From Shigella phage sb2: a DNA stretch of 64,000 bases. The notes under the pieces are model-generated. The model was given only the letters and a program-made list of their open reading frames with translations. It searched no databases and was not told the DNA's origin. The stretch lies in sequence record PQ666540. The stretch is one strand, 5' to 3'. A program made the translations under genes and the position numbers. Of this stretch, positions 29,712 through 29,845 are shown piece after piece. The first letter of the stretch is position 1, and every line of letters starts with the position of its first letter.

Positions 29712-29733
29712 ATTTGTATTGGTTGATAGTTGT

Positions 29734-29763
29734 ATAGTACCATGGAAGAACAGAGATGTAAAC
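29734..29763 (-). promoter_or_regulatory. T4-type early promoter
   Basis: GTTTAC (29758-29763), TGg + TACTAT (29734-29742), UP-like A/T tract. Confidence 0.65.
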
Positions 29764-29845
29764 CGTTTTGTGAAAAATTTTTAATGAATTTACAGGACCT
29801 AGAATCATCTATTTTTCTTAAGTATAGATTTATATTACTTGTATG

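Follow-up and report, generated by a model that had tools for sequence, protein, structure and literature searches.

Positions 29715-29790 of a stretch of Shigella phage sb2 DNA (PQ666540; the whole 64,000-nucleotide stretch is referred to here as the window) resemble four other segments of the same stretch, at about 3233-3300, 3741-3815, 54571-54640 and 56020-56095. This raises the questions of what these elements are, how far their likeness extends, and whether it reflects separate selection on each copy, duplication of whole genes, or exchange between copies.

The repeat family and its setting

The 4-kb stretch around the focal element carries the DNA polymerase, dCMP hydroxymethylase and imm genes and is ~97% identical to many Tequatrovirus (T4-like) genomes. 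The window as a whole is colinear with T4, with T4 coordinate 1 falling at window position 5831 and the first 5.8 kb representing the motA.1-to-rIIB end of the T4 map; it is 91-97% identical to T4 over most aligned regions and derives from a different Tequatrovirus isolate. T4 segments without an equivalent in the window consist mostly of homing-endonuclease genes or an intron (the mobA/gene 60 region, segF, segA, mobB, mobC, I-TevII and mobD; matching window sites 21647-21668, 27238-28183, 40501-40526, 45016/44996, 46292-46295 and 57130-58091). The T4 dam interval (16826-17724) likewise has no counterpart between window positions 21647 and 21668, and beta-gt of T4 is replaced by a T2/T6-type beta-glucosyl-HMC-alpha-glucosyltransferase. 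No Rfam families were found in the window, and curated promoter annotation is absent from T4 records NC_000866 and AF158101.

Each of the five copies is present where the earlier note had placed it. Because the minus strand holds all genes of the region, however, the elements are read as reverse complements and function as promoters on the minus strand, not in the plus-strand orientation in which they had been written, and the sequence quoted for them proved to be a composite from different copies. The 22-mer GTTGATAGTTGTATAGTACCAC occurs 4 times and TGTAAACCGTTTTGTGAAAAATTTT 3 times at up to 3 mismatches, against a chance expectation of 0.00 in both cases (100 shuffles). Pairwise identity among the five copies is 56-80% over ~90 aligned columns, compared with ~35% for other early-promoter pairs (outside the hexamers) and ~27% for random window pairs. 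Alignment of the copies revealed that identity goes beyond the core hexamers, reaching 20 nt upstream of the -35 and the extended -10, and that the likeness also covers 12 nt after the -10, the leader, the Shine-Dalgarno sequence (SD) and the ATG. Near-identity over 50-70 bp, as claimed earlier, holds for two pairs, c29763/c56064 (80% over ~90 aligned columns) and c3288/c54625 (76% over ~90 aligned columns), which attain 90% ungapped identity over 51 and 63 nt, but not for the remaining pairs, which are 56-67% identical. The repeat is real and far beyond chance, but its similarity is block-wise and the degree had been overstated.

The list of five was also incomplete, as a repeat finder recovered two further members of the subgroup, at ~11700-11808 and 59893-59985. 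Besides these seven copies, the minus strand holds ~11 promoters that belong to this class. A motif scan of the window returned 17 exact GTTTAC-N18-TAnnAT sites (equivalent to TTTACA-N17-TAnnAT), the five copies plus 12 others, each with an SD and an ATG downstream; an 18th site is the cef copy, which has a degenerate -35, and all 18 are on the minus strand, the flagged copies being 5 of ~18 early promoters in the window. The genes downstream of the five are homologs of ndd.4, imm.1, nrdC.8 and nrdC.10, plus an ORF of 87 aa. The parts of the focal copy and of its relatives are as follows.

29850..29867, minus strand: intrinsic terminator after gene 43, AGGGACC-TCCG-GGTCCCT then a T run, ~85 nt upstream of the focal promoter
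29764..29785, minus strand: A/T-rich UP-like block of the focal copy, TTAAAAATTTTTCACAAAACG on the minus strand
29758..29763, minus strand: -35 GTTTAC of the imm.1 early promoter c29763, the focal copy (TTTACA at 29757-29762)
29734..29742, minus strand: extended -10 of the focal copy, TGG then TACTAT
29722..29733, minus strand: transcription-start block of the focal copy, conserved ACAACTATCAAC, predicted +1 at the A of ATCAAC
29697..29721, minus strand: L2-type leader of the focal copy, with SD GGAG at 29706-29709 and imm.1 start codon at 29697-29699
56095..56112, minus strand: intrinsic terminator directly upstream of c56064, GGGAGCC-TTCG-GGCTCCC then a T run
55998..56089, minus strand: c56064, early promoter of the nrdC.10 homolog (-35 56059-56064; -10 56035-56040; L2; ATG 55998-56000)
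54565..54650, minus strand: c54625, early promoter of the nrdC.8 homolog (-35 54620-54625; -10 54596-54601; L1; ATG 54565-54567)
54571..54615, minus strand: predicted c54625 hairpin, 15 bp, spacer arm 54601-54615 and leader arm 54571-54585
3228..3312, minus strand: c3288, early promoter of the ndd.4 homolog (-35 3283-3288; -10 TATTAT 3259-3264; L1; ATG 3228-3230)
3234..3278, minus strand: predicted c3288 hairpin, 15 bp, arms 3264-3278 and 3234-3248, -23.2 kcal/mol, z -4.9, SD masked
3735..3818, minus strand: c3794, early promoter (-35 3789-3794; -10 3765-3770) driving the 87-aa ORF (3474-3737)
11701..11800, minus strand: c11776, cef promoter, extra subgroup member with degenerate -35 ATATAC and the same UP block
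59893..59985, minus strand: c59953, mobD.5 promoter, extra subgroup member containing TACTATACAACC, with a terminator upstream

Promoter anatomy and shared blocks

Read on the minus strand, the layout consists of an A/T-rich UP-like tract, GTTTAC, 18 nt ending in TGG, TA(C/T)TAT, the start block ACAACTATCAAC, a leader, GGAG and ATG. In every flagged copy, 18 nt with TGn at their end separate GTTTAC from TAnnAT, and the SD and ATG of a minus-strand gene come 25-45 nt further on, the SD being GGAG or GGAGG 5-9 nt before the ATG. A promoter scan called the focal site at 29762-29734, with the TG. In a position-wise consensus the A/T-rich tract takes the form of AAAAATTTTTCACAAAACG and related tracts, and the UP-like block of the focal copy recurs in c3794, c56064 and c11776 as well as in T4 PmotA and Pndd.6. 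Of the 14 positions specified in the Estrem 1998 UP consensus, 13 are matched by the 22 nt that precede TTTACA in c29763.

Alignment of the subgroup resolved its similarity into blocks with different distributions. The upstream block AAAAWTTTTTCAYAAAACG is present in c3794, c11776, c29763 and c56064, while the -10/start block TGGTACTATACAACTATCAAC is present in c3794, c29763, c54625, c56064 and partly c59953. Leader L1, CTACGGAGGAACAGAAAATG, is found in c3288, c54625 and partly c3794, and leader L2, which ends in TTGGAGAATAAAATGRAAA, in c11776, c29763 and c56064; the SD and ATG of c11776 are of the L2 type. A spacer is common to c3288 and c54625, and c56064 differs from the focal copy (80% identical) mainly in its spacer. 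Judging from these alignments, the subgroup is a mosaic family of interchangeable blocks: an upstream tract, a -10/start block and two leader types.

Beneath the blocks lies a generic early-promoter consensus, consisting of an A/T tract, GTTTACa, TGgTAt.AT and a TATC at the predicted start, which was found both in the window and in a diverged lineage (Dhakavirus-like loci). The TATC, often as CTATCAAC, lies around the predicted start 6-9 nt after the -10 hexamer in all early promoters of the window, and it is kept in Dhakavirus-like loci L007-L022 and L038. Because it is kept even in diverged lineages, many early transcripts would begin with AUCAAC. Pure functional convergence, with each copy separately selected toward an optimal strong promoter and no exchange, would account for a consensus that is common to all early promoters and persists in a diverged lineage. 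However, the copies also share their non-consensus spacer, leader and first codon. The generic layer is a functional consensus, and the additional identity of the subgroup is something more.

That additional identity includes the SD, the ATG and the first lysine codon, as would be expected if the copies were remnants of a whole gene-cassette duplication, in which paralogous genes were copied along with their promoters. The similarity stops 4-6 nt after the ATG, however, and the proteins that follow are unrelated: MKIAILVIALG (imm.1) vs MKTVTINKG (nrdC.10), and MKKIVKAIW (ndd.4) vs MNAKDIFNL (nrdC.8). The downstream genes are therefore not duplicated genes, and the duplication model is hardly credible.

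The anatomy is that of known promoters. T4 early promoters have been described as "uber" UP/-35/TGn/-10 promoters with additional consensus regions (Hinton, 2010; PMC2988021), and all of the UP, -35, TGn and -10 elements of the T4 early promoter (Pe) are present in the copies, so that the early-promoter assignment of the earlier note agrees with the published architecture. Its UP-element assignment is borne out as well, as the common AAAAATTTTTCACAAAACG block sits at the defined proximal and distal UP subsites, which span -58 to -37 (PMC2613000). The copies resemble T4 Pe in their UP-like tract, GTTTAC, TGn and TAnnAT, and their positions are colinear with T4 early-region genes; the same sequences stand upstream of motA, ndd.6, ndd.4, imm.1, nrdC.8 and nrdC.10 in T4 itself. 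Individual promoters differ from T4 through block swaps, which affect the leader at ORF87/ndd.6 and, at imm.1, the spacer. A search for start-site or expression data on these sites found none, and gene-level expression data are absent from the main text of PMC9697503.

A composite unit of this kind was termed PeSL (promoter-early stem-loop) and comprises an AT-rich tract, promoter, stem-loop, SD and ATG (Arbiol et al., 2010; PMC2839356). In RB49 and phi1, the promoter and terminator activities of PeSLs were tested, and recombination of neighbouring copies was found to yield mini-circles (PMC2839356). PeSLs were later extended to the T4/PST pair, with the consensus TTTACW-N17-TAYWAT and an example of ndd.4/.5 exchange (Comeau et al., 2014; PMC4122927). 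The copies share with PeSLs this composite anatomy and an intergenic position before small non-essential genes; at some of them, as at PeSLs, close relatives differ by indels or replacements of small ORFs. The T4/PST consensus fits every copy in the window, and the ndd region, where c3288 and c3794 lie, is the worked example of Comeau et al. (2014). A stem-loop accompanies the promoter as an upstream terminator hairpin, as a stem enclosing the -10, or as a small spacer hairpin (in c3794). Nothing essential separates the copies from PeSLs. What the window adds is the block mosaic, the restriction of junctions to the high-similarity subgroup (in this sample), and, as described below, the mutual exclusivity of terminators and -10 hairpins together with burial of the SD by about half of the strong hairpins.

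It was concluded that the elements are very probably host sigma-70-dependent early promoters (Pe) of a T4-like phage, packaged with leader, SD, start codon and either an upstream terminator or a -10-enclosing stem-loop as PeSL cassettes whose copies exchange blocks. By analogy with the T4 literature, host RNA polymerase would fire these promoters immediately after infection. The proposal that the elements are likely strong early promoters with UP elements which also serve as dispersed homology for shuffling matches the T4 Pe and PeSL literature; it is correct, and, as these elements are already known as T4 early promoters or PeSL cassettes, not new. For annotation, the sites can be labelled with confidence as early promoters/PeSL cassettes.

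Exchange between copies and turnover of adjacent ORFs

Comparison with relatives shows that copies swap blocks through homologous recombination or gene conversion and that small ORFs are inserted, lost or replaced at the promoter/leader junction, block exchange and small-ORF turnover together giving rise to a mosaic family. The gene order behind the focal imm.1 promoter takes three forms: one lacks any additional ORF, one has an ORF of 78 aa, and one has an unrelated ORF of 83 aa. In the window and in T4, the interval from gene 43 to imm.1 contains the L2 leader followed directly by imm.1; Shfl2 has the L2 leader, the 78-aa ORF and then imm.1, and ZCEC14 has the L1 leader, the 83-aa ORF and then imm.1. 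Shfl2 and ZCEC14 part from the window right after the start block (...TACTATACAACTATCAAC) and rejoin it at the SD/ATG of imm.1. A different genomic context for the ZCEC14 element was considered and rejected, the annotation being mislabelled.

The nrdC promoters supply orthologous sites at which the promoter itself has changed. The nrdC.8 promoter of locus L009 is identical to the window ndd.4 promoter, c3288, from -35 to ATG (61 nt), even though the two loci are 51 kb apart, while nrdC.8 of the window and of T4 is preceded by the alternative -10/start block. Among close relatives the N-terminal protein compared at nrdC.8 is 100% identical, yet the -10/start blocks alternate, and each alternative is identical to a block at another locus. 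At nrdC.10, the promoter is wholly replaced in L008 and L009, and the protein is 100% identical over the first 80 aa compared. The leader of ORF87 is of the L2 type in L013/L015 and L1-like in the window.

These observations weigh against convergence as well. Separate selection of each copy does not readily explain why nrdC.8 genes with 100% identical N-termini carry alternative -10/start blocks that match other loci, why L009 and c3288 agree over 61 nt, or why L1 and L2 leaders alternate at the same locus. Convergence draws some support from the finding, described below, that breakpoints are no commoner in cassettes than in other intergenic DNA, but overall it carries little probability. At the level of sequence comparison, exchange between copies is demonstrated, and the suggestion of recombination and shuffling that had been made for these sites is upheld by the three gene arrangements behind the focal promoter, by the exchange of leaders and -10 blocks seen where orthologous promoters are compared, and by the published work on PeSLs.

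The 87-aa ORF (window 3474-3737, minus strand), which starts with MKFKFYYAKHKITDEF, has denB and the ndd.6 homolog as its neighbours and is missing from T4, which retains only the last 8 codons (MKIAEIEL*) fused to an L2 leader. [quoted passage not shown]

Whether the cassettes are preferred sites of recombination was addressed by a breakpoint census in which the window was compared with 22 close loci and synteny breakpoints were clustered. Of 66 clusters, 7 fell within cassettes vs 2.0 expected over the whole window (p = 0.004), and 59 fell outside them. The enrichment vanished under an intergenic-only null (6/32 vs 6.3 expected in early-promoter cassettes, p = 0.62), and the strong form of the hot-spot model was rejected. 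Many of the non-cassette breakpoints coincide with T4 homing-endonuclease or intron segments that are missing or replaced in the window. Breakpoints were found in 4/7 subgroup cassettes vs 0/11 other early promoters, a post hoc comparison resting on four cassettes (p = 0.011), and clear examples of indels or replacements are those at c29763, c3794, c56064 and c11776. The check for breakpoints at these sites that the earlier note had proposed yields them in 4/7 subgroup cassettes, but without enrichment over other intergenic DNA, and a hot-spot status beyond that of junctions falling between genes is only suggested by these comparisons. The biological value of the window is largely confirmatory, with imm.1, ndd and nrdC supplying clean natural cases of converted promoter blocks and swapped ORFs. 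In addition, the cassettes mark the borders of small accessory-gene modules that vary among near-identical therapeutic and environmental T4-like phages.

Terminators, -10-enclosing hairpins and predicted SD masking

Stem-loops differ within the subgroup. c29763 and c56064 belong to the terminator type, and no hairpin encloses their -10 (z -0.2 and +0.3); the gene 43 terminator, also called by a scan at 29867-29850, is the upstream stem-loop of the focal cassette. c54625 and c3288 are of the hairpin type. In c54625, the nrdC.9 stop codon abuts the -35 and an upstream terminator is absent; the predicted hairpin (-23.4 kcal/mol, z -5.6) holds the -10 in its loop and the SD GGAGG (54576-54580) in its stem. 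A strong hairpin is likewise computed around the -10 of c11776 (z -6.6), while c3794 has a small hairpin, CCACAaggacTGTGG, inside its spacer that is weak (z -1.6).

More broadly, 8/18 promoters fold at -18 kcal/mol or below (62 nt from the -35) vs 1.6% of genomic 62-mers, with computed z of -3.9 to -6.6 for the strong promoter hairpins. In these folds the spacer pairs with the start region and leader and the -10 is left in the loop, and the sense-RNA folds are more stable than composition predicts. The enrichment recurs in Dhakavirus-like, RB69-like and Karamvirus loci, and at motB, motB.2, mobD.2 and nrdC.8 the hairpin persists though the arm sequences differ. Classical covariation was weak: from MAFFT-aligned motB and motB.2 orthologs, RNAalifold derived weak consensus structures with a single doubly compensated pair, as the register of the stem shifts from one lineage to another. 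Support for the hairpins is enrichment and persistence, rather than classical covariation.

A strong hairpin and an intrinsic terminator within 110 nt upstream are mutually exclusive. In the window, 0/5 promoters with a strong hairpin have such a terminator vs 7/13 of the others; the corresponding figures are 0/19 vs 20/47 in Dhakavirus-like loci (p = 0.0003) and 0/30 vs 53/105 in all non-window loci. Metagenome and IMG/VR scans contributed few loci (8, 11 and 9), which limits statistical power. The stem-loops of PeSLs most often lie between the -35 and -10 or overlap the -10, are drawn with G-T pairs, and were proposed to terminate or attenuate upstream transcription (PMC2839356), an attenuator proposal that fits the exclusivity rule. 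In the window, the stem-loops would act on RNA reading through from upstream and would attenuate or insulate that transcription. The rule itself, a terminator or a -10-enclosing hairpin but never both, is simple and testable and is in keeping with the published idea of attenuation by PeSL stem-loops. The type of insulation appears, from comparison of nrdC.10 in L008 and L009, to travel with the cassette. In L009, the region that replaces the terminator-type promoter of nrdC.10 contains a -10-enclosing inverted repeat, AGGGTAGTAGT/ACTATTACCCT, that folds at -17.1 kcal/mol; the L008 replacement has a degenerate -35 and a -10-enclosing inverted repeat, GATAGGACTA/TAGTCCTATC, identified by eye. 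No terminator is evident in the ~50 nt shown upstream of either replacement.

The same features could be read in terms of DNA. In one such model, a phage-encoded factor, e.g., an early-promoter shut-off agent, would use ACAACTATCAAC and the inverted repeats around the -10 as its operators, and these blocks would be more than promoter and RNA-structure elements. The mechanism of early-promoter shut-off has been described as not understood (PMC3014915), the TATC at +1 is kept across lineages, and the inverted repeats are centred on the -10, all of which speaks for an operator. However, the arm sequences vary among promoters and turn over between lineages, unlike those of a sequence-specific operator; the folds are strand-asymmetric toward sense RNA and include G.U pairs; and the mutual exclusivity of hairpin and terminator points to read-through RNA. 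The operator model is, on balance, highly improbable. A reading of the inverted repeats as DNA cruciforms was likewise disfavoured by the sense-strand bias, the G.U pairs and the link to missing terminators. The reading preferred here remains that of stem-loops in RNA belonging to PeSL cassettes.

A second role for the hairpins may lie in translation. For c54625, c3288, c13468 and c18662, the computed probability that the SD is unpaired is 0.00 in read-through RNA and 0.79-0.92 in RNA beginning at +1, and computed SD masking was not found for c29763 (weak), c56064, c24294, c59141 and c11776. Masking cannot be what the strong hairpins do in general, as the SD is part of only about half of them. 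Within the subset that does so, the computed folds predict that efficient translation would be confined to transcripts from the cassette's own promoter. The GGAG of the SD is where RegB cleaves early mRNAs, and RNA structure shields them from this cleavage (PMC3014915). A tentative model, toward which the balance of likelihood is unfavourable, is that each cassette might be insulated from upstream transcription by a terminator or a -10-enclosing hairpin, the two being mutually exclusive, and that about half of the hairpins might also bury the SD and RegB GGAG target, tying translation and RegB exposure to the immediate-early promoter of the cassette itself.

Hairpins that mask the ribosome-binding site and contain a nested promoter are known from T4 I-TevI/II/III, segB, soc, e and others, described as "all late genes" (Edgell et al., 2010; PMC2988022). 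The hairpins of the window resemble them in that the promoter lies within the hairpin and the SD in its 3' arm, and in that long transcripts would form the hairpin while transcripts from the nested promoter cannot. They differ in that the known cases use late (or middle) promoters, whereas the nested promoter in the window is early; the predicted logic is therefore reversed, with translation tied, as computed, to an immediate-early promoter. If this is true, SD masking at early genes would be the mirror image of the late-gene hairpin switches. Neither the exclusivity rule nor this logic for early genes was found in the accessible literature, and the two together are a possible, though doubtful, new angle on otherwise familiar elements.

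Three further sets of structures were observed in the window. Members of a near-identical, GC-rich hairpin family are located at 4648-4673, 4877-4902, 10150-10180, 32635-32660, 34582-34607, 39292-39317 and 42932-42959; on the minus strand they read GGGC-TTCG-GCCC then a T run, the form of UUCG-tetraloop intrinsic terminators, and are dispersed over the early region. At the motB promoter (12302-12363, minus strand), GUGGAG closes the 3' foot of the hairpin and UAUAAAA comes next, giving a GGAG with an A-rich tract ~30 nt upstream of the real motB SD that resembles a RegB target context; the foot is kept as AUGGAG-AAUAAA in Dhakavirus-like loci. Finally, in none of the lineages does a hairpin enclose the -10 of the srd promoter, and the srd leader (~17273-17285, minus strand) contains a small conserved motif or hairpin, CGTCCGTAAGA(T)G, which is shortened to CCGTCCGTGAGA in the window and was seen in Tequatrovirus, Dhakavirus-like, RB69-like and Karamvirus loci (L002, L017-L022 and L035-L038).
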